DNA of 38,978 nucleotides from a virus (lineage: Duplodnaviria; Caudoviricetes): the IMG/VR virus record IMGVR_UViG_3300040733_000052, positions 1-38,978 of that record. The stretch is one strand, 5' to 3'. This document shows positions 1-17,830 of the stretch, piece after piece. Position numbers and translations under genes: made by a program. A model generated the notes under the pieces. The model worked only from the letters and a program-made list of their open reading frames with translations, had not been told where the DNA came from and did no database searches. The first letter of the stretch is position 1; each line of letters opens with the position of its first letter.

Positions 1-101
1 CAGTCAAACCAAGCAAATTCATATTCGAAACTATTATTTAATTACGGAGATGGTTGTATGAGCATAAGCGACGGCGTTCGCTACTGGGGGAGGTGATCCG
101 G

Positions 102-1976: not shown

Positions 1977-2698
1977 ATAGTTATTTTATCTGCGATGCCC
2001 TTGCGAGAAAGCATTATATGGATTATTTTCTAACCGAGTGCAAAAACGGGCCTACTTATACGGTATACCACCATCTGCGGTTTGACGCGGTTGCAATAAA
2101 AAAATCGTGGGTTAACCCGTGTATAACGATTTATGAAATAAAAACCTCACGCTCAGATTTTTTGCGGGATAAAAAATATGTCAAATATCTCAACTACTGC
2201 AATCGGTTCTTTTTTGCATGCCCAAAAAACATGATAAAGAAAGAGGAGTTATCGGACCCGCGTGTTGGTTTAGTATATATTGCTGATGATAAGACGGTAT
2301 ATACGAAAAAATCCGCTCATATCATGAAAAACGATATACCATCAAGCTTCTATCAATACGTTATATATAGCAAACTCAATGATGACAGGGCTTTCTTCTA
2401 CTGGAACAAAGAGGAATTTCTAAAGCAGTGGTTAGCCAAAAAGATAAGCAACCGAGAGTTAGGTCAACGGGTGAGCTCAAAGCTAATTGACGAACTGTCG
2501 CGTGTATCAAACGAGTTATATGCAAGGGAAACGGTTTACAGTATTAAGCACACACAAGAAAAGATGCAAGATTATGAAGAGATAAAAAAAATTTTGGAGT
2601 ATTACGGGTACGGCTACAAAGTAGGGATATATCCAGTTGCAGCAATTGTAAGCGAAATTTTAGAAAAAATAAAACAATTGCGAAGGGAAAACATATGA
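1973..2698 (+). CDS. MmcB-like PD-(D/E)xK nuclease-fold protein
   Basis: 'RFDAVAI...IYEIKTSRSDFLRDKKY..YLNYCNRFFFACP' matches the MmcB/DUF1052 pattern. Confidence 0.7.
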   Translation: MNSYFICDALARKHYMDYFLTECKNGPTYTVYHHLRFDAVAIKKSWVNPCITIYEIKTSRSDFLRDKKYVKYLNYCNRFFFACPKNMIKKEELSDPRVGLVYIADDKTVYTKKSAHIMKNDIPSSFYQYVIYSKLNDDRAFFYWNKEEFLKQWLAKKISNRELGQRVSSKLIDELSRVSNELYARETVYSIKHTQEKMQDYEEIKKILEYYGYGYKVGIYPVAAIVSEILEKIKQLRRENI

Positions 2699-2770
2699 GA
2701 TTATTGCCCGGCTTTGTTGAGTTGATTATTAAATGACTCGTAAAGTTACAGGAACTGGGAGGGAGATCAA

Positions 2771-3187
2771 ATGAACAAAATAATTATAAGCGGCTACATT
2801 GGCCGCGACCCAGAGATAAAATACGCGACAAATGGGGATCCGGTAGCTAGTTTCAGCTTCGGCGTGAGCCGCCAAAAGACGAAAAACAATGATAACCCCG
2901 GTACAGACTGGCTCCGCGTAGTCGCGTTCGGTAAGGTGTGCGATACGATCAGCAACTACTTCGAAAAGGGAACAGGACTGATCATCGAAGGCCATATCCG
3001 CACTAACACGTACGAGGCGCAGGATGGGACTAAAAAATATACCACAGATATAGTCATGGATCGATTCGAGTTCTTGCCGAAGGGTACGAGAGAACCGAGA
3101 TCGGATACCGTGAAAACCGATACAGGCAACGGGCAGGAACCAACGCCACCGATTACATCTGGCGATGACGATGAAGTCCCGTTTTAA
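2771..3187 (+). CDS. ssb: Single-stranded DNA-binding protein
   Basis: MNKIIISGYIGRDPEIKY OB-fold start and acidic C-terminal tail 'DDDEVPF'. Confidence 0.97.
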   Translation: MNKIIISGYIGRDPEIKYATNGDPVASFSFGVSRQKTKNNDNPGTDWLRVVAFGKVCDTISNYFEKGTGLIIEGHIRTNTYEAQDGTKKYTTDIVMDRFEFLPKGTREPRSDTVKTDTGNGQEPTPPITSGDDDEVPF

Positions 3188-3200
3188 AGGGGGATGAAGA

Positions 3201-3755
3201 ATGAAGGTACTATGCGTTCCGGATTATGCGTTTGAATATGAGCTGATAAGAGAACATATTAACGGCATGGGGCTTTACCTCGATAGAGATGTTTTAGAAT
3301 CGAACTTCGCATATCGGCAAATTATTCCGTATGTCGTTTTGAGAGACTCTGAAGGAAAAATCCTTACTTATCAGCTTCAAAATACGAGTAACGAAGAACG
3401 ATTGTGCGGACAATATACGATCGGAATAGGCGGTCATGTGGAAGAAAAGGACGGAACCGGTTGGATGGCTGTTCACAAAGCAAGCGAGAGAGAAATACGA
3501 GAAGAAATCGGCGTGATACCGCTTCTGATGGATGGCAAAATAACGATAATACGATTGCATGAAACGGAAGTAGACCGCGCTCACCTCGGGATTGGGATGG
3601 TATTAAAAAAATGGGCTGGAAAAATTATACCTTCGAAAGAAGTCCCGAGTTGGGAATGGAAAACTATCGAAGAGTTAAAGGCCATGGAGCTCGAAACATG
3701 GGCGAGATACATGCTCGAATATCGTTTAGGTTACGAGGAAAATAAAGAGAGGTGA
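3201..3755 (+). CDS. NUDIX hydrolase
   Basis: Nudix box 'GGHVEEKD...ASEREIREEIG' and the 'RQIIPYVV' motif. Confidence 0.85.
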   Translation: MKVLCVPDYAFEYELIREHINGMGLYLDRDVLESNFAYRQIIPYVVLRDSEGKILTYQLQNTSNEERLCGQYTIGIGGHVEEKDGTGWMAVHKASEREIREEIGVIPLLMDGKITIIRLHETEVDRAHLGIGMVLKKWAGKIIPSKEVPSWEWKTIEELKAMELETWARYMLEYRLGYEENKER

Positions 3756-3764
3756 TTGACGGTC

Positions 3765-3863
3765 ATGTTCACCGGCATACTCATAGGACTATTCATAGGA
3801 ACAGCGTTAGGAATGTTCATTTCGGCATTGTTTAAATCAGCAGGAGGCAGCGATGAACAATGA
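3765..3863 (+). CDS. Small membrane protein, 32 aa (MFTGILIGLFIGTALGMFISALFKSAGGSDEQ); not in ORF track
   Basis: GAGGTGA RBS upstream, a single Gly-rich hydrophobic helix, and it fills the gap between neighbouring genes. Resembles common small phage proteins. Confidence 0.6.
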   Translation: MFTGILIGLFIGTALGMFISALFKSAGGSDEQ

Positions 3864-4170
3864 AAAAAACTTAGCGGCTCAAGAGAAAGAAACAGGAAGC
3901 CTAAGCACGCTTAGTGAACAGGAATTTCGAACCGCGTTTACACATTACCAATGCCTCGAGAAAGAGGTATGGAATGTAAAAACAGGCCTCGAAGCGATTA
4001 TGCGGATCGCTTCAAGGCTGAAACCGTTCAAAGCGTTTGCAACGGATATTGAGAGTATATCAGAAATAGGAAAATCCCTGGCTCAAGTCGAAGCACTCGA
4101 AGCGACAATCGACAAAACAAAAACGGCCCTCATCCACGAGACCAATGCGAGATATACCAAACGAGAGTAA
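3853..4170 (+). CDS. Hypothetical coiled-coil protein
   Basis: AGGAGG RBS; helical 105-aa ORF in operon order. Confidence 0.65.
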   Translation: MNNEKNLAAQEKETGSLSTLSEQEFRTAFTHYQCLEKEVWNVKTGLEAIMRIASRLKPFKAFATDIESISEIGKSLAQVEALEATIDKTKTALIHETNARYTKRE

Positions 4171-4615
4171 TTCCCGCGTTAACGCCGGTGACGTTGTACG
4201 GATGCTCCAGAATTACAAGGCAAACGTGCAGCGTTACCTCGGTTGTCGCGTGCATTTATCTCTCCTGCCATCCGGGGAGATCGACTGGTACCTGAGCGAT
4301 AGCCCGAACGAGCACGCATGTCTCAATGATCAGGTGCGTGCCGGGTTGTTTATCAAGTATTTTGAACACTGGTACAATCAATTATCGCTGGAGTGCCGTG
4401 GGATCCTGTTCCACTGCTACATCAACCACGATTTCGAACTCGCAAACACGATGAGCGCGTGGCTCGAGTTCGAGTGGGGACGAATGAAGTATAAGACATT
4501 GCCTGTTAGGCGCTTGGCCGTGCTCTTCGATTGCTCGACGGCGAGATTGTATAAGATGAAGCATTATAGTTTGGAGAGATTAATGGTTATAATAAACGGA
4601 GAAATAGAAAAATAA
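4145..4615 (+). CDS. ArpU/RinA-like late transcription activator
   Basis: C-terminal sigma-region-4-like HTH ('LSLECRGILFHCYI...VRRLAVLFDCSTARLYKMKHYSL'); sits at the end of the replication module. Confidence 0.6.
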   Translation: MRDIPNESNSRVNAGDVVRMLQNYKANVQRYLGCRVHLSLLPSGEIDWYLSDSPNEHACLNDQVRAGLFIKYFEHWYNQLSLECRGILFHCYINHDFELANTMSAWLEFEWGRMKYKTLPVRRLAVLFDCSTARLYKMKHYSLERLMVIINGEIEK

Positions 4616-4628
4616 AAGGAAACGTGTT

Positions 4629-5513
4629 ATGGGGGTGACAACAACGATATATGTGGGATTGGAACGCTCAGAAAAACAAAAAATAATACAGGAATATTTG
4701 CAAAACAACAAAGTTCGAAAGGTATTTGTAATTAGCTCTGAGAAAAGCGAATACGACACAGGGTATATAGAAAAAGAAAGCTTGGGTTGGTCTGATGTCA
4801 TTATGTATAAGTTTTTTTATCGATTGCTCGAGGAAATAGATTCAACATGTCTTGTTGTGATAGATGAAATGATGAGAACTCAGAACAGAAGCGAATTAAC
4901 GTATAACTGTGCGCATCATTATCTTAATCAAACCCCACATCGACTCATATTTGAGTATTTTCCTTTTATTGAACAAAAAGACGATTTTATGATTTTGCTT
5001 GATTTTCAAGATAAGCCTAAATATCGTGGAAAAGGCTTCTCGTGGGAGATGTTAAAAGAGCAAGATTTAAGAATAAAAAAAACAGAAATGAAGTTCGAAA
5101 TACTGCCGGTTCAAATAAGCACTAAAGAAAAGGCAGAATATTTTCAAAAGAAAGAAGCGTTGTTTGCCGAACTCGGTAGTAAAAACCCAGACACGATCCC
5201 GCGGAATCTTCACGTTTTTGTTGGGAAATACAAAAAGAGGAACTTGTATACCGGGAAAATTTACGTTGCGAGAAACTCCCGTTTTAATATGCTTAATGTG
5301 ATTACGTATAAAAATAAGTCAACTATTTCAGCGATTATTATCGACTTTCCGCACAGAAGAATAGACTTCAACGATTATCTCAAACGAGTGACGCCCCCCA
5401 TAGTATCTTTTTTATCTACCGGTTTGCCCGTTGACAATTATTATGCTGAAAGTTTTCGAAAATGGCTCGAGCGATTGGAGGAGTTTTATGATCAGGCAAG
5501 TATATCAGAATGA
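4629..5513 (+). CDS. Hypothetical protein, possibly a degenerate SF2 helicase/ATPase-like fold
   Basis: Walker-B-like 'CLVVIDEMMR' and only a vestigial Walker A ('YVGLERSEK'). Overlaps the ibrA-like gene. Confidence 0.45.
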   Translation: MGVTTTIYVGLERSEKQKIIQEYLQNNKVRKVFVISSEKSEYDTGYIEKESLGWSDVIMYKFFYRLLEEIDSTCLVVIDEMMRTQNRSELTYNCAHHYLNQTPHRLIFEYFPFIEQKDDFMILLDFQDKPKYRGKGFSWEMLKEQDLRIKKTEMKFEILPVQISTKEKAEYFQKKEALFAELGSKNPDTIPRNLHVFVGKYKKRNLYTGKIYVARNSRFNMLNVITYKNKSTISAIIIDFPHRRIDFNDYLKRVTPPIVSFLSTGLPVDNYYAESFRKWLERLEEFYDQASISE

Positions 5514-6606
5514 AACCGTGTTAAGCGCCGCAAAACGTAGGATTAGCTATGTGTTTGATGAACGCGAAAATATCGTTGTGTCTATAAGCGGGGGCAAAGA
5601 CTCAACGGTATTGGCGCACCTTGCCCTTAAAGAAGCGAACAGACGTGGAAGAAGGATTGGACTGTTTTTTCTCGATGAAGAAGTAGTCTATGATAGCACT
5701 ATACGCCAAATAGAGTATCTTATGAACTTGTATCCTACCAATACCATTAAATTATGGTATCAGATAGAGTTTAGGCTGACGAATGCAACGAGTTTGAAAG
5801 AGGGGCAGTTGATTTGCTGGGAGGCCGGAAAGCATAAATTATGGATGAGGCCTAAAAATAATGAATCAATACAGCATAAATCATGGGATAAAGAAAAAGA
5901 AACAATAAGAGACAAAAACAAAGGTTTTGGGTTTTATGATGTGCTCGATAATTTTCAGAACAATCGGCCAAACACTGCGTTTATGGTTGGATTGCGGGCG
6001 GTTGAAAGCATGAACAGATGGCGTGCTGTTTCTAAAAACCCTGGATACAAGAGGTGCTTTTGGAGTACAAAACTTCAGAACGGGAGTGCTGCTTTCTATC
6101 CGATATATGACTTTAATTTTCACGATATTTGGAAGTACATTTACGATGAAGGGCTCAAATACAGCAAAATTTACGATTATATGTGGAAAAAGGGGACACC
6201 TTTGAACGAGATTAGAGTGTCAAGCTTGATTCATGAAAAATCGTTTAAAGCGCTGGTTGATCTTCCGGAGTTCGAACCAAAAACATATGATCGGCTTCTT
6301 AAAAGAATCGATGGCATTTCTATTGGAGCTATTTATGGGAAAGATCGCGCAATGTTAAAAGCCCAAAAGCTGCCTAAAAACTATCGCAACTGGCGTGAGT
6401 ACAGAAATTTTCTTTTGGTAACTTATCCGGATGCTGATAAGAAAACCATATTCGAAAAAAGGTTTGCGCATCAGCTTGATAATGATTATGTTGCTCGGCA
6501 ACAGTGCAGGCAACTCATTCTTAACGACTATGAAAATAACCTGCCAATTGATAACAAACCAGATCCAAGATCCGAGGAAATAGAAAAATGGAGGGAGATA
6601 TTATGA
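5488..6606 (+). CDS. ibrA: IbrA-like PAPS-reductase-family (PP-loop, DUF3440-type) protein
   Basis: ATG at 5488 after GGAGGAG. 'VVSISGGKDS' PP-loop, 'FLDEE', 'VGLRAVESMNR', 'YPIYDF...DIWKY', 'RVSS', 'CRQLILNDY'. Followed by a ParB-like gene as in ibrAB loci. Confidence 0.8.
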   Translation: MIRQVYQNETVLSAAKRRISYVFDERENIVVSISGGKDSTVLAHLALKEANRRGRRIGLFFLDEEVVYDSTIRQIEYLMNLYPTNTIKLWYQIEFRLTNATSLKEGQLICWEAGKHKLWMRPKNNESIQHKSWDKEKETIRDKNKGFGFYDVLDNFQNNRPNTAFMVGLRAVESMNRWRAVSKNPGYKRCFWSTKLQNGSAAFYPIYDFNFHDIWKYIYDEGLKYSKIYDYMWKKGTPLNEIRVSSLIHEKSFKALVDLPEFEPKTYDRLLKRIDGISIGAIYGKDRAMLKAQKLPKNYRNWREYRNFLLVTYPDADKKTIFEKRFAHQLDNDYVARQQCRQLILNDYENNLPIDNKPDPRSEEIEKWREIL

Positions 6607-7127
6607 TCCTTGAAAGCAAAATAGGCCCGATTCCGGCTCCGTGCATGGATGTGGTTTTAATCCCGGCAACCAAGCTGAGAGCCAATAACTATAACCCGAA
6701 CAACGTCCCCAAAAATAATATGGAACTCTTAAAACAATCCATCATCGATAACGGCTTTTGCTTTCCGATAGTCACGATCTATGATAAAGAGGTTGACGAG
6801 TACGTTATCATTGATGGATTCCATAGATATACCATACTTACGGAATACCTGGGAATTTCCACTATACCCATCGTGGTATTAGATCATGACATTAACAAAA
6901 GGATGGCAGCAACTATACAATTCAACCGCGCGCGAGGAGTACATCAAGTAGAGCTTATGGGCGACTTGGTACAAGCCTTGATAAGTCAGGGTATGAGCGA
7001 TGAGGACATCAGCAAACACCTCGGGATGGAAATGGAGGAAGTATATCGGTTAAAACAAATTACTGGTATCGCCGAATTGTTCAAAAACCAGATATATTCT
7101 AAGGCTTGGGAAATGGAGGAAGCTTAA
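6603..7127 (+). CDS. ibrB: IbrB-like ParB/Srx-domain protein
   Basis: 'ANNYNPN', 'GFCFPIV', 'IIDGFHR', 'MAATIQFNRARG.H' and a C-terminal HTH ('ISKHLGMEMEEVYRL'). ATGA overlap with ibrA. Confidence 0.85.
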   Translation: MILESKIGPIPAPCMDVVLIPATKLRANNYNPNNVPKNNMELLKQSIIDNGFCFPIVTIYDKEVDEYVIIDGFHRYTILTEYLGISTIPIVVLDHDINKRMAATIQFNRARGVHQVELMGDLVQALISQGMSDEDISKHLGMEMEEVYRLKQITGIAELFKNQIYSKAWEMEEA

Positions 7128-7762
7128 TGGCGGACTGGAATTATGGCGATTCTTTCAAACGTTATCCAATACCCGATGATGGATGGTGTTTTGAAGATGG
7201 CAGCATGATAAAAACACATAACATATTTGATCCTCTGCCGGAATTTATGAAACAATCCGATATCATATTTACAGATTCACCATGGAATCTCGGAAATCTC
7301 AATACATTCTATACTAAAGCACAAAGAACAGACTACCAAAAGAGTTTTGAGACATTTTATAAACGCTTATTTGAATGCCTTAACGAAATAAATCCGAATC
7401 AAGCCTTTTTGGTTATAGGGAAGCAATACCTCGCGGAATACATAATCGAAACGAAAAACATGTTCAAACATACGACGTTTTATAATAGCACTTATTATCA
7501 CAAACGAAATAACGTATGTTATATAGTCCACGGTTCCAATCTAACATCGAAACGTTTACCGTTGGAGTACGCAGATGAAGAAGATGCGATAAGGTGGATA
7601 TGCGATAACATTAGTTTCTCGTGTATCGGAGATATATGTATGGGGCGTGGAAGCGTTGGGTATTATGCCTGGAAAGCCGGGAAAAAGTTTGTCGGTACAG
7701 AGTTAAATCACAAGCGCCTTTCCGTATTAGTGGAAAGAATTAAAAACGCCGGGGCGAAGTAA
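7127..7762 (+). CDS. Compact amino-DNA-methyltransferase-like protein (beta-class motif order)
   Basis: Motif IV variant 'IIFTDSPWN' precedes SAM-binding motif I 'DICMGRGSVG...GTELN'. TAATG coupling to ibrB. Confidence 0.7.
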   Translation: MADWNYGDSFKRYPIPDDGWCFEDGSMIKTHNIFDPLPEFMKQSDIIFTDSPWNLGNLNTFYTKAQRTDYQKSFETFYKRLFECLNEINPNQAFLVIGKQYLAEYIIETKNMFKHTTFYNSTYYHKRNNVCYIVHGSNLTSKRLPLEYADEEDAIRWICDNISFSCIGDICMGRGSVGYYAWKAGKKFVGTELNHKRLSVLVERIKNAGAK

Positions 7763-7763
7763 T

Positions 7764-8519
7764 ATGTTGGTCGCGAGCTTTTTGTATTCGATTTCCGGAT
7801 CTCAAAACGAACACGCTAACATAACTTGTAATGTCAATGATATTTGCGCATTATGCGGTTCAAAAATCTCCGAAGGGATCTTAAAGAAAAAGATCATATC
7901 CGAAGCCTTTACAAACTGGGACTTTATATCCCAATCCGATTACCTTTGCGTTCCTTGCGCAAACATCCTTAAAGGCGAACTTGCGCGCTCAATTCGCACG
8001 TCTTCGTTCTACGCAACTGCCGGAGGAATACAGCTGTTCAAATTTCACGATCTATCGCATATGCTCTTCATGAAGCATGATACGCCGTTCGTATTGTGTT
8101 TTACGAGCAGCTTCAAAAAACACAATGCGTTCCGGGCCGTGCTCAACGATTCTGATGAGCGGTTTACGGTGCGCTGGGAAGACCGTGCGATAGAGGTTGA
8201 CCGGAATGCATGTACGTCGCTTTTCCGGGGATGCGTGCATCTGTATTTCGGAGGATTTACAAAGGAAGAGATATCCAATAACACGTTCGCGCTTCACCGG
8301 TGCATGAAGTACGGTATCGGACGATTCAACGAGCACTACGAGATTATCAAGCCTTATTTCCGGACAAATCTGCTGGAATTTATATGTGAAGCCCTACCAT
8401 CCAGGAAACGGGAAACATACGTTAAGATAATTGCTGAACGCGAAAAATCCGCTAAAGCAGCGAAGGGAGCGAGTAATGGAAGAAATACGGGAACTAACAA
8501 ACGAGGAAAAAGCGGTTAG
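7764..8519 (+). CDS. csf1: Type IV CRISPR large subunit Csf1 (Cas8-like, Zn finger)
   Basis: CALCG...'AFTNWD'...CVPC zinc finger and 'PFVLCFTSSFKKH' motif; lies upstream of a small helical gene and csf2. Confidence 0.75.
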   Translation: MLVASFLYSISGSQNEHANITCNVNDICALCGSKISEGILKKKIISEAFTNWDFISQSDYLCVPCANILKGELARSIRTSSFYATAGGIQLFKFHDLSHMLFMKHDTPFVLCFTSSFKKHNAFRAVLNDSDERFTVRWEDRAIEVDRNACTSLFRGCVHLYFGGFTKEEISNNTFALHRCMKYGIGRFNEHYEIIKPYFRTNLLEFICEALPSRKRETYVKIIAEREKSAKAAKGASNGRNTGTNKRGKSG

Positions 8520-8880
8520 ACTGGCCTATTTTCTTTGGAAAAGCATTGATCACGAGGGGATGAGTGCTTCCCGCCGAATGGGGATATGGGATGAGTTCCA
8601 GCAAAAAATAATATATGCGGCAATGCAACAAACACCGGAAGCAATGATCGAGGTGTTTGCCAAGAAGTTTTCGATCATGAGTTACAAACATAGCGCTATT
8701 CTTGCGTTCATGACGCCAGAGGCAGTTGATCAAATCCGCCGGAATCCGAGGAAAATTGTACTGATGTTACGCGCAACTATTGAAGAGGAAAAGGTGGAGT
8801 ACAAGGCGAAAGTAGAGGAAAGAGCAGAGAAAGAAAAAGCTAAAGAACGGATGAAGCTCATGAACTCGGATTGGGAGTAA
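8476..8880 (+). CDS. cas11: Type IV-B small subunit (Cas11-like)
   Basis: Small all-helical protein between csf1 and csf2 ('LWKSID...IWDEFQQKIIYAA'); start MEEIRE at 8476 after GGGAG. Assignment is mainly positional. Confidence 0.6.
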   Translation: MEEIRELTNEEKAVRLAYFLWKSIDHEGMSASRRMGIWDEFQQKIIYAAMQQTPEAMIEVFAKKFSIMSYKHSAILAFMTPEAVDQIRRNPRKIVLMLRATIEEEKVEYKAKVEERAEKEKAKERMKLMNSDWE

Positions 8881-8893
8881 TTCATCAAAGGAG

Positions 8894-9706
8894 ATGAAAA
8901 GAATGAATAAAAGTTACACGTTCCGATACGAAGCGTTGACTCCAATCAGTCACGGGGATGAAGGCGCGCTATCGACAATTATGCCTTTCCGAAGGCAGCG
9001 CGTGTACTGGGAAGGCGAATATTACGATATCCCGGTTGTGAGCGGGAATTCATTCCGGGGTGGAGCACTGCGGCGGAAAGGCATGAAACGTTTCTGCGAT
9101 CTCCTTGGACTCAAGAAAGAAAGTCTGCGGGCGAAGCCTTACTATCTGCTATTCAACGGTGGCGCGTTATCGAAGGGAGATTCGGATGTCTCTATTGGTG
9201 CGAAGAAAGAGTTCAGGAGGATTCTCCCGCTCGTATCCATCTTCGGCGGTGGTATCGACAACATGCTCCTTGAAGGGCGGATGCAGATCGGATTCATCTA
9301 CCCAATAGGCAAAGAAACGCAGGCAATTACGGGGATCCACTCGGATCGAAGCGTGTTTGAATTTTTGAACACTGTATTTTATACGCGCCGAGATGACTAT
9401 ATTCCGGAAGACCCCACGATGAAAGAGATGACGGTACAGATGAAGTATGAATGCGAGATTATGATACCGGGTACCAAATTCATCCAGCAGGTATCCGTTA
9501 CAACCGATGAGGAGCTCGAACTATCCGCGTTCGGCTTTTTGATGAAAATATTCCAGGAAGAACCGCATATCGGGTCTAAAGCGAACGTTGGGCACGGGTT
9601 CGTAACGTTCGAATCGAGCGGAAAACTTCCTGATAGTAAACCGTTCGAAGACTATGTAGAGAATAACAAAGAGATGATCATATCCTATATACGAAACTTA
9701 GCATAA
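8894..9706 (+). CDS. csf2: Type IV CRISPR backbone Csf2 (Cas7-family RAMP)
   Basis: RAMP motifs 'EALTPISHG', 'IPVVSGNSFRG', 'LLFNGG', 'PLVSIFGG', 'GRMQIG', 'TRRDD' and G-rich loop 'IGSKANVGHG'. Confidence 0.9.
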   Translation: MKRMNKSYTFRYEALTPISHGDEGALSTIMPFRRQRVYWEGEYYDIPVVSGNSFRGGALRRKGMKRFCDLLGLKKESLRAKPYYLLFNGGALSKGDSDVSIGAKKEFRRILPLVSIFGGGIDNMLLEGRMQIGFIYPIGKETQAITGIHSDRSVFEFLNTVFYTRRDDYIPEDPTMKEMTVQMKYECEIMIPGTKFIQQVSVTTDEELELSAFGFLMKIFQEEPHIGSKANVGHGFVTFESSGKLPDSKPFEDYVENNKEMIISYIRNLA

Positions 9707-9719
9707 GGAGGTGATATGA

Positions 9720-9812
9720 GTGGCTGAAAGAATTCTTAAATCAGGGAAGCTAACCCCTAACGCCAAATTCAAAGCAGCCAGTAGCGGTGGCGGAACAGTA
9801 ACAGGGAGATAG
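9720..9812 (+). CDS. Unannotated 30-aa basic peptide (MAERILKSGKLTPNAKFKAASSGGGTVTGR)
   Basis: AGGAGGT Shine-Dalgarno 7 nt before GTG 9720. The ORF fills the csf2-cysH gap, and its TAG lies 2 nt before the cysH ATG. Confidence 0.6.
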   Translation: MAERILKSGKLTPNAKFKAASSGGGTVTGR

Positions 9813-9814
9813 CT

Positions 9815-10582
9815 ATGGTCTCAAATGCAGAACAAAAGGAAGAAGACTTGTTATATGCGAAATTACCTATTTATAGAAAGCGGATAAATCAGGCCCGGGA
9901 GTACGTCTCCCGGTGTCTGGCCGCATCACATAAACCATGTGTATCCTTTTCCGGGGGTAAAGATTCCTCCGTATTACTTTCCATGGTTATCGAGCAACGT
10001 CCTGACGCGATGGTCGTTATGTATGATTCCGGCGCCGAGTTCCAGGAGACATTCGATATTATCGAACAAACGGAAAAGCGTTTAGGTATAACGATATACA
10101 TCCTTGAGCCGGAAATGAGTATGCTGGAGCTCAAAGCCTATTCGGATGCGTACGGGCCGATACATATTAGCGAGTACAAACGGGTGTTGATAGAGGATCC
10201 GTCGAGGCGAATAGCAAAAGAATACGGATGCGATATGTTCTTTATCGGATTACGAAAGGAAGAAAGCAATCATCGCCTGTTTGCCTTGTCACGGATGAAA
10301 GAACCGTACTATTACAGCGAGAAGATGAAATTTTTTATGGCTTACCCACTTATGAATCTCAAGGGGGAAGACGTCTACGCATACATTGCCGAAAACGATC
10401 TACCGTTGCATCCTTACTATACCGATCCTCGTATACACGTTGAACGGAATCTTCGGAGAGTATCTGGGTGGGCTGGGGATACAGCGGCGAGTCAAGGGCG
10501 GTGGTTGTGGCTCAAACTAACGCATCCGGGATTGTATGAACGGCTGTATGCAGCCGATGAAAGGGTTGGGTGGTATATATGA
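9815..10582 (+). CDS. cysH: Type IV-B-associated CysH-like PAPS-reductase-family protein
   Basis: 'VSFSGGKDS', 'YDSGAEF', 'IGLRKEES..R', 'YPL...DVYAYI...LPLHPYY'. Embedded between csf2 and csf3. Confidence 0.85.
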   Translation: MVSNAEQKEEDLLYAKLPIYRKRINQAREYVSRCLAASHKPCVSFSGGKDSSVLLSMVIEQRPDAMVVMYDSGAEFQETFDIIEQTEKRLGITIYILEPEMSMLELKAYSDAYGPIHISEYKRVLIEDPSRRIAKEYGCDMFFIGLRKEESNHRLFALSRMKEPYYYSEKMKFFMAYPLMNLKGEDVYAYIAENDLPLHPYYTDPRIHVERNLRRVSGWAGDTAASQGRWLWLKLTHPGLYERLYAADERVGWYI

Positions 10583-11289
10583 GGAACTTTAGAATAGAAG
10601 CTTTATTAATATCACCCGTAATTATTTATGAACCCCTGCATCTAGATTCGCTCTTATCATATGCGAAGAACATTATTCAAGGGCGAAGAGAAATCCCGCA
10701 ACGGATGGAAGACGCTACAATATTCGATGATTTACCGTTAGCAAGGGTTAACGACGTATGGTGTTCTAGCGCCGGCTTCGTTGTCGGGCGTGATTCGAAA
10801 GAAATAATTCACAAAAAATTCGAATATGCTTACGAAAACTTGATCGACTTCGAAGGTAAACGAGAAGTGATTTTTACGGGAGGACTATATTTTAAGAACA
10901 ATGCCAGACCTTTGATTGTTACAACGGCTGAGAAGATCATTTGGTTTGCAGTAGGGAATCAATCGGAGGTTAAAAAAATGCTGGATACGGTAATTCAAAT
11001 AGGGCGCGGGAGGGCTGTCGGGTACGGGGCAATCAAAGAATGGCGATATTACGGGATAGCAAAAGACAAGTCGTTTTTCTCTGGAAACAAAGCCATGCGA
11101 AAGATACCGATAGAAATGGCGCATTGCATAACATCGAAAATAGAACGTTGCGGATATAAACCCCCATATTGGGACAGAAGTACATATAAACCATGCTACG
11201 TGCCAATTTGGAAGCATCGTGAGCCGAAAGAGTTTGAGGCCTATACTGAAGAGTATTTCTGTTTGAGTGAGGAGAGTGAGATCGCATGA
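10579..11289 (+). CDS. csf3: Csf3 (Cas5-family RAMP), copy 1
   Basis: 'LISPV...LHLDSLL', 'VWCSS', 'IWFAVG', G-loop 'IGRGRAVGYG', C-terminal 'YKPPYWD'. ATGA overlap with cysH. Confidence 0.85.
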   Translation: MRNFRIEALLISPVIIYEPLHLDSLLSYAKNIIQGRREIPQRMEDATIFDDLPLARVNDVWCSSAGFVVGRDSKEIIHKKFEYAYENLIDFEGKREVIFTGGLYFKNNARPLIVTTAEKIIWFAVGNQSEVKKMLDTVIQIGRGRAVGYGAIKEWRYYGIAKDKSFFSGNKAMRKIPIEMAHCITSKIERCGYKPPYWDRSTYKPCYVPIWKHREPKEFEAYTEEYFCLSEESEIA

Positions 11290-11987
11290 TAAATCTTAGG
11301 ATAGAAGCGACACTGCAATCGCCAATTGTATTATATGACCCAATATTTTTAGATAGCATTTTAACGTTAGCAGTACATATTAGCCAAGGGCGGTATGAAT
11401 CCCCTATTAACTTCGAAGATATCATATACGTGGATATCCCGCTCGAAAAGTGCAGAGATGTCTGGTGCGCCAGCGCTGGGATGTTCGTCTCTCGGGAATC
11501 GAAAGAGGTCTGGCACAAGAAATTCGCATCGGAATACGAAGAGATGATAGATTTCGCGGGGAATAAAGAAGCAATAGTAACCGGTAACGGGCCGTATAGG
11601 TCATATGCTATGCCCCTGATAGTTAGTTCTACCCCGAGAGTAATTTGGTTTGCGCGGGGGGATAAAGTAGAAGTAGAAAAGTTGTTAACCTATATCACGG
11701 CATTAGGTAAGAAGCGTGCGATCGGGTACGGTCAGATTGCGAAATGGGTAGTAACCGAAATAGAGAATGACCGCTCGATAACGATGCCAGGTGGAGTATC
11801 AAGGCATATACCTACAGATTATGGGGATTATCCTAACAATAAACGAAGCGTATCGTATAAACCTCCATACTGGGATCGCAGATATTTCGTGGAATGTTAT
11901 CTCCCGCGGTGGCGGTTCCAGAGTGCCGAAGAATTCGAAGCGTATACCGGCGAACCCGCGGAATTAGCTCGGCACTGTGGCGCGTAA
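11286..11987 (+). CDS. csf3: Csf3 (Cas5-family RAMP), copy 2
   Basis: 'LQSPI...IFLDSIL', 'VWCAS', 'IWFARG', 'LGKKRAIGYG', 'YKPPYWD'. Colinear paralog of the preceding gene. Confidence 0.85.
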   Translation: MINLRIEATLQSPIVLYDPIFLDSILTLAVHISQGRYESPINFEDIIYVDIPLEKCRDVWCASAGMFVSRESKEVWHKKFASEYEEMIDFAGNKEAIVTGNGPYRSYAMPLIVSSTPRVIWFARGDKVEVEKLLTYITALGKKRAIGYGQIAKWVVTEIENDRSITMPGGVSRHIPTDYGDYPNNKRSVSYKPPYWDRRYFVECYLPRWRFQSAEEFEAYTGEPAELARHCGA

Positions 11988-11996
11988 GGAATCCTT

Positions 11997-12266
11997 ATGG
12001 TCTTTGTTACAGACCACGCAATACGCCGGTTCATAGAGCGAATCGCGCCGTACATCACATATGATCAGGCTAAGGAGATCATACTTGACGATCTCAAAAC
12101 GATACAACGTGAAGACGTTAAACAGGCGAAAAGCAACTATTATGTGCGCGTGCGATCGAAGTGGTTTGGGAAGCACGGCACACCATATAAGTATCGGCTG
12201 TTTATTGCTCCGCAAGAAAAGACTCCAGAAAAGGGCTTCCTCATAGTTACGATCCACCGAGGATAA
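11997..12266 (+). CDS. Small basic protein with an HAxxRxxER motif (DUF4258/RelE-like fold, possible RNase)
   Basis: 'VTDHAIRRFIERI' at the N-terminus and 'LIVTI' C-terminal strand; AAGGA RBS. Confidence 0.5.
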   Translation: MVFVTDHAIRRFIERIAPYITYDQAKEIILDDLKTIQREDVKQAKSNYYVRVRSKWFGKHGTPYKYRLFIAPQEKTPEKGFLIVTIHRG

Positions 12267-12290
12267 AGAGGCGCGAAAGCGCCTTTTTTT
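12265..12290 (+). terminator. Rho-independent terminator ending the accessory operon
   Basis: AGGCGC-GAAA-GCGCCT stem-loop followed by a T run. Confidence 0.9.
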
Positions 12291-12415
12291 ATTACATTGC
12301 ATACGTAATAGTGCGAAATACCGCGGAAAAACGAGTATATTTTAGTATCGTTTAGTATAGCATGTATAACTTATAACTATCAACTATTACTATCGATAAT
12401 CATTAGGATATAGCA

Positions 12416-12444
12416 TTGCAATACCAACCGAATCGGATTATACT
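12416..12444 (+). promoter_or_regulatory. Sigma70/SigA-type promoter
   Basis: TTGCAA-17 nt-TATACT; the spacer contains the palindrome CCGAATCGG. Confidence 0.7.
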
Positions 12445-12468
12445 ATTACTGTAGTAGATGAGGATGAG

Positions 12469-12489
12469 GGTCTTTGAAAAAGTGAATAG
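12469..12489 (+). promoter_or_regulatory. boxA-like antitermination element
   Basis: GGTCTTTGAAAAAGTGAATAG just downstream of the promoter resembles the boxA (TCTTTGAAAA) of Firmicutes-type rRNA leaders. Confidence 0.5.
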
Positions 12490-12523
12490 GAGCGAAGAAA
12501 AAAAAGCAAAGGAGGAGAAAGGA

Positions 12524-13180
12524 ATGCTTACGAAATGGTCTAAAACGATACTAACAAAAGGAGACAGCATAGAATACGGCTGTTACGACGCCCCGAACGG
12601 GACTCGATACCTGGCGCGATATCAAAGTCACTATTATCTGATCAATGACGATGGCACGGGTAATGGTTTTTTTGACTCCGGGGAGCCCGTATACATAACA
12701 AAAAAAGAAGCCCAAAGGCTTATTTTGCTTAAAACTTACAATAACATGACTTATTGGGATAAAGTAATTGAAGACGCAAACGCTGCCTTCGGGTGGCATT
12801 TATCCTCTTCAGTGCGTGAAGAATTGATAGAAAGCGAGAAGCCAACCCCTATGACAGCCATAGATATAGCTGATGGCTGTGGAATTGATGAATGGGGGAC
12901 GTTTGAAAGCGGTTATGAGGATTGTGAAAAAACATTCAAGCAGTTCCTCGATGAAGGCTGCAAAGTAGTAGTCTTGCGAGAAAAATGGTCAAACGGGGAT
13001 AAATACATAGGATTCAAGTTAATCACCTCAAATGGGGAATACCTTGCCGATATTATAATGCAACGTATCGACGGGGAAATCAGAACCTCTTTTACGTGTC
13101 TCGCAGGGTTAGGGCATCTCAAAAAAGATTTTGAAGCCTCTATAAAAGAATATTTTGTAAAAAAGAAGATGGAAATATAA
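12524..13180 (+). CDS. Hypothetical protein (moron-like)
   Basis: Likely start MLTKWS after AAGGAGG/AAAGGA. No recognisable family. Confidence 0.7.
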   Translation: MLTKWSKTILTKGDSIEYGCYDAPNGTRYLARYQSHYYLINDDGTGNGFFDSGEPVYITKKEAQRLILLKTYNNMTYWDKVIEDANAAFGWHLSSSVREELIESEKPTPMTAIDIADGCGIDEWGTFESGYEDCEKTFKQFLDEGCKVVVLREKWSNGDKYIGFKLITSNGEYLADIIMQRIDGEIRTSFTCLAGLGHLKKDFEASIKEYFVKKKMEI

Positions 13181-13205
13181 GGAAACAAAAAACGGGAGAG
13201 ATAAT

Positions 13206-13280
13206 ATGCGTTGGGACGACTTGCCACGCGAGGAGCTGGAAAGAATGACTATCGGCGAGTACGCCGGCGAAGAAGAATAA
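13206..13280 (+). CDS. Putative 24-aa acidic peptide (MRWDDLPREELERMTIGEYAGEEE)
   Basis: GGGAG RBS; stop codon immediately precedes a terminator. Confidence 0.4.
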   Translation: MRWDDLPREELERMTIGEYAGEEE

Positions 13281-13282
13281 TC

Positions 13283-13304
13283 AGGGCGCAGATGCGCCCT
13301 TTTT
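13283..13304 (+). terminator. Rho-independent terminator
   Basis: AGGGCGCA-GA-TGCGCCCT followed by TTTT. Confidence 0.8.
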
Positions 13305-13315
13305 GAGGTGATGAT

Positions 13316-13507
13316 ATGCTTATTACGGCTACGGATTACGCGAAGAAAAATAAGGTAGACAAACAGATGCTGATGCGCATCATCAAGCATCTGAAGGTTG
13401 ATCCGGTTCAGACGATCGGGAACGCGCAGATGTTCCCGGAAGAGTTGTTCGATCGGATGATCGAGGCGATAAATTCTATTCCACTTGACAAAAAAACAAA
13501 AACGTGA
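13316..13507 (+). CDS. Small HTH-type DNA-binding protein
   Basis: GAGGTGA RBS; 'ITATDYAKKNKVDKQMLMRIIK...IGNAQMF' resembles an excisionase/MerR-like winged HTH. Confidence 0.6.
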   Translation: MLITATDYAKKNKVDKQMLMRIIKHLKVDPVQTIGNAQMFPEELFDRMIEAINSIPLDKKTKT

Positions 13508-13513
13508 TATTAT
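13485..13513 (+). promoter_or_regulatory. Near-consensus promoter upstream of the packaging operon
   Basis: TTGACA-17 nt-TATTAT with extended TG. An alternative extended -10 (TGGTACAAT) lies at 13514-13522. Confidence 0.75.
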
Positions 13514-13581
13514 TGGTACAATAGCCGTAGGTATGAGATTATACCTGCGTGGATGGAAACGAATGTCTCGCCGCATAAATC

Positions 13582-13606
13582 AAAAAGGGCCTCCGGGCCC
13601 TTTTTT
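13582..13606 (+). terminator. Intrinsic terminator in the terS leader
   Basis: AAAAAGGGCC-TCCG-GGCCCTTTTTT perfect inverted repeat; could act bidirectionally. Confidence 0.85.
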
Positions 13607-13638
13607 GTTGGGGATTTACAGGGAATGGAGGTGATATC

Positions 13639-14004
13639 GTGGCAAAAACAAAATACGATCCGTCGCTAATTCCGGCTATAGAGATGTGGGCGCGTGATGG
13701 CCTCATCGAGTCCGAAATCGCTAAAAAATTGGGGATAGGATATTCCACGTTATCCCTCTGGAAAACTAAGCATGTGGAAATTGTAGAAGCCTTAAAAACG
13801 AACAAAGAAGCGGCAGATGCGCATGTAGAAAAAGCACTATACACCAAAGCCTTAAACGGCGATACCACCGCGCAAATCTTCTGGCTCAAAAACCGGCAGC
13901 CCGGCAAGTGGCGCGATAAGCGCGATATCGGCGTCGAAGGGCAGGTCGTAATAGATGCGTCGTTCGAGGACCTCGACGAAGAACCTGACACAGATAAAGA
14001 ATAG
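13639..14004 (+). CDS. terS: Terminase small subunit
   Basis: N-terminal HTH ('WARDGL...IAKKLGI..STL..WK') and 'AQIFWLKNRQPGKWRDK'; precedes terL. Confidence 0.85.
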   Translation: MAKTKYDPSLIPAIEMWARDGLIESEIAKKLGIGYSTLSLWKTKHVEIVEALKTNKEAADAHVEKALYTKALNGDTTAQIFWLKNRQPGKWRDKRDIGVEGQVVIDASFEDLDEEPDTDKE

Positions 14005-15208
14005 ACGTCTTCCTGACGCGATAATCAAATTAGGGAAAGCCTCCGACTGGATCAACGCGGCGTACATCCCGTACCTATCTGTGCGTGACCGATACGAGAT
14101 ATATTATGGTGGTGCCGGATCGGGTAAGAGCCACTTCATCGCGCAAAAGATTATCTACCGCACACTCCGGGAACGCGGGCACCGTTATCTCATAGTACGT
14201 AAGGTTGCGCGTACAAACCGACATAGTACGTATGATCTGTTCCGCAGCGTCATCGCCTCTTGGAAACTGCAATCGGTATTCAAAATCGACAAAACGGAAT
14301 TGGATATCACATTCACCGTACACGGGAAAGCGGACAACCAGATATTGTTTACCGGGCTCGACGATGTTGAGAAATTAAAATCGATCGCAGGCATAACGGA
14401 CATATGGATCGAAGAGGCATCGGAAATATCACCAGAAGATTTTACGCAACTTGACCTTCGACTCAGAGCCAAGACCCGTTACCCTAATCAGATAATACTG
14501 TCATTTAATCCGGTATCGGCTTACAGTTGGCTAAAGAAACGATTCTTTGACTCACCAGTAGAAAACACTTCTATCCTTAAGACGACCTACAAAGATAACC
14601 GGTTCGTCGATGACGCATACAAACAGGTAGTCGAAGGGCTTAAAGAGCAAGACCTAACCTATTATCAGATATATGCTCTCGGAGAATGGGGATCCCCAAA
14701 AGGGCTTATCTACAATAACTGGCGACTTACGAACGAGATTCCGGTATCCAGTACGGTAACTTACGGCCTCGATTTTGGATTCAACAATCAAACGGCGCTC
14801 GTAGAGATACGTGAGCACGACGGTGAAATATACCTGCGCGAACTTCTCTACCAAACGCATATAACCAATTTTGAGCTGATAGAAATAATGAAATCTATGC
14901 ACTTAACCGGCCGTCGCATCTATTGTGACAGTGCGGAACCAAATAGGATCCGAGAGCTGAGCGCGTCAGGCTTTATAGCATTATCCGCACACAAGGATGT
15001 ACTCAAGGGGATCGATCATGTGAAGAGCTTGAAGCTTCGAGTGTACGCTGAGAGTGTGAACCTTATTAAAGAATTACAATCGTACAAGTGGCGGGAAGAC
15101 AAAGACGGACGCGTACTGGATGAACCTGTGAAGTACCAGGATCACCTATGCGATGCGATGCGGTATGCGTTGTATACCGGCACAAAATCCGAATATGCGG
15201 CGTGGTGA
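13955..15208 (+). CDS. terL: Terminase large subunit (PBSX/SPP1-like)
   Basis: Walker A 'YGGAGSGKS', Walker B 'IWIEEA', 'SFNP', nuclease 'GLDFG' and 'DHLCDAMRYA'. Exact start uncertain. Confidence 0.95.
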   Translation: MRRSRTSTKNLTQIKNRRLPDAIIKLGKASDWINAAYIPYLSVRDRYEIYYGGAGSGKSHFIAQKIIYRTLRERGHRYLIVRKVARTNRHSTYDLFRSVIASWKLQSVFKIDKTELDITFTVHGKADNQILFTGLDDVEKLKSIAGITDIWIEEASEISPEDFTQLDLRLRAKTRYPNQIILSFNPVSAYSWLKKRFFDSPVENTSILKTTYKDNRFVDDAYKQVVEGLKEQDLTYYQIYALGEWGSPKGLIYNNWRLTNEIPVSSTVTYGLDFGFNNQTALVEIREHDGEIYLRELLYQTHITNFELIEIMKSMHLTGRRIYCDSAEPNRIRELSASGFIALSAHKDVLKGIDHVKSLKLRVYAESVNLIKELQSYKWREDKDGRVLDEPVKYQDHLCDAMRYALYTGTKSEYAAW

Positions 15209-15212
15209 TGAA

Positions 15213-16436
15213 ATGGCAGAAAAAATGAAAGTGGACACGAAGCAATACGTTGACCTATTAGATAGATTCTGGGAAATCCTCGGCGTGATCCTCAACGAAG
15301 ATGATCTCGATAACGAAGACAAAGAAAAGATGCTCACGCGTGACGAGACGATCAAGGCCGGGCTCAAGTATACGACAAATAACATCTACTCAGCGATCGG
15401 CAGGTATACGCATCCCAATGAACGAATCGATGAGACGATTAACCTGGCGCTCGATTTCTCAAACACAACTATCAGCAACGTGTTACAACGGATGATCTAT
15501 GAAGCACAAGGATACGGGTATGCGGTAGGTGAGATCATCTACATAATCGACAACGGCGTTGTCAAGGTATCGGATATCACGCGACTCGCCCCAATACAAT
15601 GCGCATTCAAAATCCAGCCCGACAAATCTCTTGCGGTTGAATACACGACAGTAAAATACGGGAAGATCATTCTACCACCAGAAAAATGCCTAATCCTACG
15701 TAACGGCGAAGGTATCTACGGGGAGAGCGTGTTACGTTCTGTGTTCTCCAGTTGGCAGTTCAAGACCGCTTTAAAAAAATGGTGGGCTGTGGCAATGGAG
15801 AAGTTTGCAATCCCAACGGTAGTAGTCGAGAGTGCGGACCCAAACGCTGCACGGGCAATATTCGCGTCGTGGTTTTCTAAGGCCGGTGTATCAGTACCGA
15901 TCGGTGACAAGATATCCACGTTACAGCCTGGGAGTGATATGGCTCACAGTTTCCAGGATTCGATCGAATACCTTAACACGTTGATCTTCCGGGGGTTACA
16001 GGTACCGCAACTTATATCCTCTGCTTCGGATACTGGGGCTTACGCAATGAGTAAGACACACATGCAACTCTTCCAGGATACGATGCGGGCACAAGCCACG
16101 AACTATGCGAACCAAATCCTAGACCAACTTGTTACGCGACTCGTTGAGTACAACTTCGGTGTACAAGAGGATTACGGTGAGTTCACGATCAATGTGCAAC
16201 CCAGCGTAGAGGATAAAGCGGCAATGGCTGGATACATAACCACGCTAATCAACGGTGGTGTAGTGGATCCAACAGAACCGTGGATCCGCGATATGCTGTC
16301 TATCCCTGAATACGAAGGGGCGGTGATACCGGATGCCGACAGCGGTAATGACAAAGACAGCGCTCAGTTACGCGGAAAACAGGATAACACATTACCTGAT
16401 GAGTCCGTGGAAACGGCTACGACAGGCGGTAATTGA
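15213..16436 (+). CDS. Portal protein (Mu gp29/DUF935-like)
   Basis: Follows terL; 'GYGYAVGEIIY', 'YGESVLR', 'EKFAIP', 'GAYAMSKTH', 'LVEYNFG'. Confidence 0.85.
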   Translation: MAEKMKVDTKQYVDLLDRFWEILGVILNEDDLDNEDKEKMLTRDETIKAGLKYTTNNIYSAIGRYTHPNERIDETINLALDFSNTTISNVLQRMIYEAQGYGYAVGEIIYIIDNGVVKVSDITRLAPIQCAFKIQPDKSLAVEYTTVKYGKIILPPEKCLILRNGEGIYGESVLRSVFSSWQFKTALKKWWAVAMEKFAIPTVVVESADPNAARAIFASWFSKAGVSVPIGDKISTLQPGSDMAHSFQDSIEYLNTLIFRGLQVPQLISSASDTGAYAMSKTHMQLFQDTMRAQATNYANQILDQLVTRLVEYNFGVQEDYGEFTINVQPSVEDKAAMAGYITTLINGGVVDPTEPWIRDMLSIPEYEGAVIPDADSGNDKDSAQLRGKQDNTLPDESVETATTGGN

Positions 16437-17265
16437 CAACAGGGCTATAACCTATGATATCATTCCGGATTTCCAGAACGCGATCATGAGTGGCGTGATG
16501 ACGGCATACCTATACGGCCGTATCAGCGGGTATGGAGATGTTGTAAAGCAAACTCGCGGCAAACATATACGGGCACCGAACCTGAGATTCGCTACTCCCG
16601 ACTGGAGCCAGACGGTCGCCGTGCTTAAAATCATTCTGCGAAACGATTCTAAACTCGTGAAAGGGTTGCTCGGGATTATCGGTACGCGGCTTATAAAAAA
16701 CGAAGCAGAAGCGTTTGATGAATACTTCCGACCGAGTGAAAAGGCAATGAGCTTCATGAGCCAGTACACCGTAAAGCTCGCGGGGATCGAAGCGCAGGAT
16801 ACGCTACGATACGTGTCGGGACTTGTTAAGGATACGATCGAGACTGGGATGAGCGCACAACAGGCAACGAAATACCTCAGCGAAAAGCTTACGGAGTTTG
16901 CACGTAACCGGGCGAAAGCAATCGCCGTAACGGAAGCGACGCGTGCGTATAACGTAGGAACCCTCGAAGAGTGCCAGAGCAGCACGATTCTCGATGGATA
17001 TCGTTTCAACGCGGTACTTGATATGCTCACAACAAAAATATGCCGAGAACGCGATAACCTATTCATCCCTGCTCATGATACGAGTGCGATCGCAACGAAT
17101 ACACCACCGCTGCACGTAAACTGCCGATCGAATCTCGAACCTGTTACGAAATATTCCAAGCGGAAGGATCAGTATAAAAACATCAATGATACGTATCTCA
17201 CAACACAATCGAAACAGCGCCCGGAGGATATCGCGACGATACTCTCAGTGCTGAATCAATACTGA
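16333..17265 (+). CDS. Minor head/head morphogenesis protein (Mu gpF/SPP1 gp7-like)
   Basis: 'RAKAIAVTEATRAYN', 'AVLD..TTKIC', 'PPLHVNCRS'. Confidence 0.9.
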   Translation: MPTAVMTKTALSYAENRITHYLMSPWKRLRQAVIDNRAITYDIIPDFQNAIMSGVMTAYLYGRISGYGDVVKQTRGKHIRAPNLRFATPDWSQTVAVLKIILRNDSKLVKGLLGIIGTRLIKNEAEAFDEYFRPSEKAMSFMSQYTVKLAGIEAQDTLRYVSGLVKDTIETGMSAQQATKYLSEKLTEFARNRAKAIAVTEATRAYNVGTLEECQSSTILDGYRFNAVLDMLTTKICRERDNLFIPAHDTSAIATNTPPLHVNCRSNLEPVTKYSKRKDQYKNINDTYLTTQSKQRPEDIATILSVLNQY

Positions 17266-17286
17266 AACTGGAGGTGGAATTAAACC

Positions 17287-17634
17287 ATGTGGATGAAATT
17301 CATACAGCCAAGTAGTGCAGAGTTAGAAAGCACGCATTACGTAAATATTGAAAATAGAAGTGGTTTCGTTATCGAATATCGTAATGGCGCCAGTATATTG
17401 CTAATTATCTTTACCGGGAAAGAAATCATGCTAGATGACGCTAAATATTCTTATCTGTTAGCGCATAGAGATATTCACGAGGATATATCCGAAGATATGC
17501 TCGATGAGCTATACCAAAAAATCATAGGACAGATCGACTTACTTCTAAATAGCAAAGTTGAACTTATCGATTTTTCTGATATTTTAACAAAATTAGTAGC
17601 AAAGGAAAAGAATAAACGTAACGAGGTTATGTAA
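17287..17634 (+). CDS. Hypothetical protein (AT-rich insert)
   Basis: GGAGGTG RBS, 115 aa, followed by its own terminator. Confidence 0.65.
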   Translation: MWMKFIQPSSAELESTHYVNIENRSGFVIEYRNGASILLIIFTGKEIMLDDAKYSYLLAHRDIHEDISEDMLDELYQKIIGQIDLLLNSKVELIDFSDILTKLVAKEKNKRNEVM

Positions 17635-17660
17635 CAAACAATCGAATAATACTCACAAAG

Positions 17661-17683
17661 AAGAGCCGAAAGGCTCTTTTTTT
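17661..17683 (+). terminator. Rho-independent terminator
   Basis: AAGAGCC-GAAA-GGCTCTT followed by a T run. Confidence 0.85.
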
Positions 17684-17704
17684 ATTGGGAGAGTGATAAC
17701 ACGC

Positions 17705-17830
17705 ATGTATTTCGTAGTGTTTGTTTTAAGCGCCGGGTTCGGTCTGGCATTAGGGTTCTACGCCGGGTTGACTGCAAAGGATACGGTTAAGAAAGAGCGT
17801 GGGGAAACATGCAGGAAAAGGCGCCGTTAG
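17705..17830 (+). CDS. Small membrane protein, 41 aa (MYFVVFVLSAGFGLALGFYAGLTAKDTVKKERGETCRKRRR); not in ORF track
   Basis: GGGAG RBS, one TM helix plus a basic tail; overlaps the GT2 start. Confidence 0.5.
   Translation: MYFVVFVLSAGFGLALGFYAGLTAKDTVKKERGETCRKRRR

Follow-up and report, generated by a model that had tools for sequence, protein, structure and literature searches.

Subtype IV-B CRISPR-Cas systems are characterized by what they lack: excerpts of four papers (PMC7038947, PMC8175902, PMC12669027, PMC11656645) give the missing array, cas6, adaptation genes and helicase as the defining state of the subtype, and an excerpt of PMC7937560 states that 97.8% of IV-B operons have no array. 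According to the literature, the IV-B proteins Csf2 and Cas11 assemble on heterogeneous RNA, an RNA-bound assembly shown for the JS623 system only (PMC7937560), and the associated enzyme, CasCysH, has a pyrophosphatase motif without the cysteine of PAPS reductases. As excerpted, PMC8175902 names the function of IV-B as a question with two parts: which RNA is bound, and what CasCysH does. Here we analyze positions 7764-11987 of a 38,978-nt stretch of tailed-phage DNA (record IMGVR_UViG_3300040733_000052, positions 1 to 38,978; hereafter, the window), for which a first-pass annotation, made from the letters alone, had noted a Cascade-like complex lacking the usual CRISPR parts, without naming the subtype. 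The region is almost certainly a type IV-B CRISPR-Cas operon on a temperate phage. Its putative Csf filament has, in our estimation, about an even chance of being a scaffold for a CysH-like enzyme engaged in nucleic-acid modification.

Operon content and the missing CRISPR parts

The genes follow the order csf1-cas11-csf2-cysH-like-csf3, with csf3 in two copies (Table 1). The two Csf3 proteins were recognized by PADLOC with E-values of 1.6e-37 and 6.3e-48, and the NCBIfam csf matches in the window were all below their cut-offs. The likely start of cas11 is the ATG at 8476, which lies behind a ribosome-binding site, while the open reading frame (ORF) as listed begins at 8431. Csf1, csf2, csf3, cas11 and a cysH-like gene with the PP motif but without the catalytic Cys are the genes expected of IV-B, and they stand, as expected, on a mobile element without array, cas6, dinG or adaptation genes. 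Type IV-A does not apply, since dinG, cas6/csf5 and the array are all absent. Neither does type IV-D, with its RecD helicase and array: there is no array, and the sole clear helicase gene is of the UvrD type and lies in the replication module, about 8 kb from the operon.

The absences were confirmed in several ways. A repeat finder run over the window returned no array, the sole regular repeat being a 12-nt coding tandem at 454-546; Rfam gave no match at gathering score over the window; and a scan for two-repeat mini-arrays, which recovered its positive control and gave 0 in 20 shuffles, found none, either in the window or in the 16 kb by which record G001 exceeds it. This record (54,909 bp, CheckV completeness 100%, ends classed as linear) carries the window, itself 86% complete, at 100% identity. 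Cas6 (PF10040) and Cas1 (PF01867) were absent from G001, while both families were detected in control genomes, and PADLOC gave no Cas, DinG or Cas3 match among 46 further ORFs of the window and its flanks. So, the lack of a repeat-spacer array in 39 kb, and of cas6, adaptation genes and DinG/Cas3, was correctly noted and holds also across the complete record. The first-pass annotation had advised running mini-array finders on the full genome and had named a canonical array with cas6 there as evidence to the contrary; in G001, neither element is present. The absence of an array is as such ordinary for IV-B, and not news. Among 68 related Cas loci two gave a two-repeat match, only one of them convincing: L076 has a CRISPR mini-array (124-217; 31-nt repeats, 32-nt spacer) directly upstream of a IV-B csf1.

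Table 1. Position of the operon genes and surrounding features in the window.
Feature	Positions	Strand	Observations
294-aa protein	4629..5513	+	No Pfam/NCBIfam/PADLOC/PHROG match; also in L021, L055; accompanies IbrA/IbrB cassette
IbrA-like PP-loop protein (PAPS_reduct + DUF3440)	5431..6606	+	Profile match
IbrB-like ParB-N protein	6588..7127	+	Profile match
DNA methyltransferase-like protein	7106..7762	+	Pfam N6_N4_Mtase E 1e-5, slightly below cut-off
csf1 (Cas8-like large subunit)	7764..8519	+	PADLOC E 1.5e-30; without the C-terminal clamp-binding motif of many relatives
cas11 small subunit	8476..8880	+	PADLOC Cas11_1_IV E 8.5e-8
csf2 (Cas7-like backbone)	8894..9706	+	PADLOC E 2.6e-54; TIGR03115 E 9e-13, below its cut-off
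Micro-gene, 30 aa, Lys/Gly-rich, ends Gly-Arg	9720..9812	+	Strong ribosome-binding site; abuts cysH-like start
CysH-like (CasCysH) PP-loop enzyme	9815..10582	+	Pfam PAPS_reduct E 3.4e-26; SGGKDS motif; no C-terminal catalytic cysteine
csf3a, diverged Cas5-like paralog	10579..11289 (ORF from GTG 10570)	+	PADLOC profile match
csf3b, more canonical Cas5-like paralog	11286..11987	+	PADLOC profile match
89-aa gene (11997-12266), then conserved terminator hairpin closing the operon	11997..12292	+	Gene comparison, hairpin
Near-consensus sigma-70 promoter	13485..13513	+	11/12 consensus, extended -10; kept in 4/4 aligned phages
Solitary type I-C-repeat-like unit	13524..13560	+	2 nt and a stem, then an 11-nt tail with a single mismatch to array repeats
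24-nt spacer-like segment and strong terminator	13561..13606	+	Just before terminase small subunit gene

The CysH-like enzyme, its slot and the micro-peptide

The structure model of the CysH-like protein (pLDDT 95.7) displays the PAPS-reductase/PP-loop fold, common with TtuA and TilS. In the family, the motifs SGGKDS and GxRxxE are invariant and there is no conserved catalytic cysteine, no column of the 65 sequences having more than 49% Cys. The modelled fold and these motifs fit an adenylation chemistry.

The earlier remark that there is almost no intergenic room near the locus held but for a single 108-nt gap inside the operon (9707-9814), and this gap is occupied by a ribosome-binding site and a 30-codon ORF. 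Compared to the related locus L003, the length and frame of this micro-gene are kept, with pS 0.73, pN 0.20 and dN/dS 0.09 (the neighbour genes give 0.02-0.12). It is, from the conserved length and frame and the low dN/dS, a protein gene rather than a hidden guide RNA. A guide RNA in the csf2-cysH gap was accordingly rejected, the gap being coding and its synonymous sites near saturation. Similar micro-genes ending at the CysH start were found before 9 of 57 Cas-linked CysH genes and before none of 367 other genes, using a filter of 24-38 codons, Lys/Gly-rich composition, Arg among the last three residues and an end at the CysH start; looser scans added two (L072 and L073). All eleven aligned peptides are rich in Lys at the N-terminus, carry Gly-Gly close to their end and have an Arg within the final three residues. 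We lean, slightly, towards the peptide being a partner of CasCysH, probably as its substrate or donor.

The slot occupied by the enzyme was studied in related loci obtained from Csf2 and CysH searches, from which 17 near-duplicates were dropped to leave 60 non-redundant loci with csf2 and csf3. A CysH-like gene is found in 54 of the 60, a figure inflated by up to 17 loci fetched with CysH queries; it is missing from L056, L010, L017, L043, L021 and the truncated L060. A B12 radical SAM enzyme occupies the slot in L056 (2534-3949), while L059, with a near-identical Csf2, has CysH. In L010, L017 and L043, an unrelated protein of 220-250 aa with a DSGA motif stands between csf2 and csf3 instead of CysH, and the comparison with L014 and L015, which have CysH, is again a swap between near-identical Csf2. 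Since near-identical Csf2 proteins carry swapped enzymes, the CysH slot can be regarded as an interchangeable enzyme position. A B12-dependent radical SAM enzyme is also present in the CysH slot of L058. Concerning the DSGA protein, a DpdA/TGT identity was not adopted: it was a language-model lead only (one cluster, 17% DpdA), with no sequence match in Pfam, PHROG or PDB.

A clamp-binding-type motif, scored against a consensus that we take to be the accepted one, was found at the end of Csf1 in 20 of 58 loci. Elsewhere it was seen in 0/68 Csf2, 0/63 Csf3 and 0/52 Cas11 (0/183 together), 5/134 PAPS-family and 5/37 IbrB proteins. This predicted motif is pointing to replicating DNA. An IbrB/ParB-like gene occurs in the fetched stretch of 12 of the 60 loci, in some inside the operon, together with methylase, GNAT or glycosyltransferase genes, and the genes at 5431..6606 and 6588..7127 of the window are those which we take to be IbrA and IbrB. 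Because of the Csf1 clamp motifs and the IbrA-like, ParB-like and methylase-like genes upstream, a role in nucleic-acid modification is favoured, as far as gene context goes. Such a role has been proposed in general terms for IV-B in the excerpted part of PMC8175902. In the mechanism that we propose, the Csf proteins would form an RNA-bound filament, through which the CysH-like enzyme, predicted to adenylate with ATP, would reach the phage nucleic acid. The enzyme would then modify this nucleic acid, probably using the 30-residue peptide as donor or substrate, and the modification would protect it from host nucleases. The scaffold role, the choice of DNA rather than RNA as the target, the peptide as a substrate and the protection from nucleases are the parts that we infer.

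Several observations weigh against this scaffold mechanism or the place of the peptide in it. No IbrB gene is nearby in 48 of the 60 loci; phages lacking Cas genes commonly have IbrA, IbrB and PAPS genes, with no Cas match in 68 of 85 CysH-query loci; and the window's own Csf1 has no clamp motif. The micro-gene filter was tuned after the peptides had been seen, and a stricter version retained 7/57 and missed the window. The nine peptide matches represent about six lineages, and the peptide-linked CysH proteins form no single well-supported clade in the tree. By the filter, such a peptide is missing from 48 of 57 CasCysH genes, and so it cannot be a general substrate.

Alternatively, the peptide could be the end product: CasCysH would modify or cyclise it, in the manner of ribosomally synthesized and post-translationally modified peptides, or ligate it to some protein, in which case the role of the Csf filament would be only to regulate or house the reaction. 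The common features of the eleven peptides agree with this, as does a C39 peptidase-like gene after CysH in L045 (Pfam E 3e-5), with a similar-looking one in L032. However, neither a peptidase nor an exporter gene adjoins the operon of the window, most IV-B loci have no peptide, and the peptide sequences are of low complexity and poorly conserved. We consider this explanation unlikely.

Solitary repeat-like units and the possible source of a guide

The absence of an array stands with one refinement, as a solitary CRISPR-repeat-like unit, of a kind that array finders do not report, is found at 13524-13560. The promoter before it is the best sigma-70 match within positions 1-18000. Six fetched arrays have the same layout as this unit (2 nt, stem, 11-nt tail), one of them flanking cas3, cas5c, cas8c, cas7c, cas4, cas1c and cas2. 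Of 201 genomes searched, many have arrays whose repeat end differs by a single mismatch from the last 14 nt of the unit, and a chance test gave 1 match versus 0 in 100 shuffles. A second, near-canonical unit lies outside the window, at 4605-4635 of G001, behind a 460-aa gene. The identity to the six array repeats is 21-22/32 for the window unit and 25-28/32 for the second one, with the same stem and tail. The complete relative G205 has three units, so that both complete phages of the lineage carry two or three. Rfam gave no CRISPR repeat family among 10 weak matches over 12200-13800.

Two features of solitary repeat units or RNA anti-CRISPRs (Racr) are present: a single-copy CRISPR-repeat-like sequence with its fold, and an upstream promoter, here predicted from its consensus match. 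Solitary repeat units act as RNA anti-CRISPRs according to an excerpt of PMC10651486, and viral CRISPR RNA (crRNA)-like RNAs are regulatory according to one of 10.1101/2024.10.29.618823. Judging from sequence, the units are more likely to be RNA anti-CRISPRs or regulators than the guide of the Csf complex; the window unit may simply be an attenuated leader of the packaging operon. Near-canonical I-C solitary repeats are found beside the integrase region in three phages, at L004:4605-4635 (the same as G001), L177 ~1490-1515 and L188 ~3001-3025, with a common sequence after the tail and differing left halves; these integrase-side repeats could be RNA anti-CRISPRs or attachment sites for integration into a host CRISPR repeat.

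The two csf3 copies are 45% identical, sisters within this lineage (tree support 99) and under purifying selection (0.07 and 0.06), and among the 60 loci only the window and L003 have two. Of 39 columns conserved in the family, Csf3a keeps 24 and Csf3b 30, where single-copy Csf3 proteins keep 20-39. Csf3a has lost, in both its copies (window and L003), a glycine conserved at 96% and the two lysines of the Gly-rich loop. The paralogs are likely subfunctionalised. The candidacy of Csf3a as a Cas5c-like nuclease was rejected, since its modelled fold is that of Csf3: it matches type IV Csf3 with Z 20.1, root-mean-square deviation 3.2 and 213 aligned positions, and type I-C Cascade with only Z 4.1. 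A literature search found no paper describing a peptide, a duplication of csf3 or a clamp motif of Csf1 in IV-B, although the supplementary locus tables of PMC7038947 and solitary repeat unit tables of PMC10651486, outside its scope, may list such cases.

The non-canonical phage guide suggested in the first-pass annotation thus gains a concrete candidate at 13524-13584. Host Cas5c would cut an RNA made from one of the phage's solitary repeat units (13524-13606 or the second one), the complex would load the product as its fixed guide, and the extra Csf3 would read the 11-nt handle. The crRNA-like anatomy behind the best promoter match, the shuffling test and the two or three units in both complete phages agree with this, and type I-C needs no Cas6, as an excerpt of PMC10651486 states. 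However, a scan restricted to I-C-type tails gave 0 exact and 2 one-mismatch, stem-less matches across 30 other IV-B records, which is no excess over the 5 from 35 non-IV-B records; by that scan, the units are confined to this phage lineage. They are not tied to the csf3 duplication either, as G205 has units but one csf3. L003 and L008 retain promoter, hairpin and terminator but have a shorter tail and no spacer-like part. The spacer-like segments gave only chance-level target matches in the window and the loci, the hosts not being searched, and the fold of Csf3a adds to the objections. An own guide appears improbable, and the 13524-13584 unit is not a general answer to the IV-B guide question, because none of the 30 other IV-B phage records has it and the target search was negative. 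All-against-all blastn of the 500-nt flanks of IV-B operons gave mostly matches between close relatives, plus a few short ones, and established no shared non-coding element.

Equally improbable is that the filament acts as an anti-CRISPR sponge sequestering host crRNAs. This idea of the first-pass annotation is an old published one, called unlikely in the excerpted part of PMC7038947, although the same source reports that IV-B correlates negatively with I-C and other types, and the I-C-like units suggest a host with type I-C. When crRNAs were co-expressed, the excerpt of PMC7937560 indicates that they were not enriched in the IV-B complex (~0.12% of reads), and a sponge would leave the CysH slot (PMC8175902, as excerpted), the peptide and the enzyme swaps unexplained. 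A combined scheme of RNA-guided peptide tagging, in which the phage's own I-C-like repeat RNA would be matured by host Cas5c and read by the second Csf3, and a CysH-like ligase would attach the peptide (or its terminal residue) to DNA or RNA, is very unlikely. A canonical array with cas6 elsewhere in the same phage genome is hardly conceivable: the window is just 86% complete and the relative L076 has its mini-array directly before csf1, but an array outside the window is already refuted by the complete and identical G001, unless a few kb are missing from the ends of this linear record.

The phage genome and comparison with described systems

The window represents most of a temperate tailed phage, with terminase, portal, capsid and tape measure genes found by profile search, and the extra 16 kb of G001 add a serine integrase, repressors and recombination genes. 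Skermania phage SPI1 (27% identity) is the only cultured phage found with this module. The 294-aa protein upstream of the operon gave a poor structure model (TM ~0.4 to SF2 helicases), which is at most a weak helicase-like fold, neither DinG nor Cas3. The 89-aa gene follows csf3 in this lineage (also in L003, L007 and L008) and is under purifying selection. The 12-nt tandem at 454-546 lies in the replication initiator gene and, with an inverted copy at 379-404, is likely the replication origin. Two glycosyltransferase genes (17809-20888) interrupt the head morphogenesis module, where they separate the Mu F-like gene from the protease gene. Before the integrase, L004:208-1631 holds a cassette of an unassigned gene, a helix-turn-helix gene and a PD-T4-9_C-like gene, resembling a toxin-antitoxin-chaperone module. 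As to other loci, the Csf2 ORFs of the L044-L061 group (e.g. L049:1648-2859) are ~400 aa long, with no separate cas11 match, suggesting Cas11-Csf2 fusions, and the IV-B loci L066, L067 and L068, which come from contigs of Methanobacteriaceae, also have methylase, GNAT and IbrA/IbrB genes.

The phage offers one compact candidate for each part of the IV-B question, namely a conserved peptide beside CasCysH and a crRNA-like small RNA; either of them, if true, would open the IV-B mechanism. The repeat units may, besides, be new type I-C RNA anti-CRISPRs.

CasCysH has the fold and SGGKDS motif in common with TilS and TtuA (PP-loop adenylating ligases/thiolases) and with DndC/SspD, but differs from them in having no conserved catalytic cysteine. 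As excerpted, RacrIC1 (PMC10651486) and the crRNA-like regulatory RNAs (10.1101/2024.10.29.618823) are, like the window unit, single I-C-like phage repeat units behind a promoter or gene; compared to these, the window unit has a longer stem (21-22/32 identical to array repeats) and probably serves also as the leader of the packaging operon, and its anti-CRISPR role is putative. The closest viral precedent in the literature excerpts is the type IV-B locus of Fuxivirus (PMC10848311), also virus-encoded with a CysH-like gene, which has a two-repeat mini-array where the window has only solitary repeat-like units; PMC10853773 yielded nothing pertinent. The Csf complex of Mycobacterium sp. JS623 (PDB 7JHY, PMC7937560) comes from the same five genes, on a mobile element without array, cas6, adaptation genes or helicase-nuclease. 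The window differs from it in being a temperate tailed phage with two csf3, a micro-peptide gene before cysH and an IbrA/IbrB/methylase-like cassette directly upstream. Beyond these systems, the locus brings together in one small genome a peptide-CysH pair that has no peptidase, a second Csf3 that has diverged and a candidate crRNA-like RNA.

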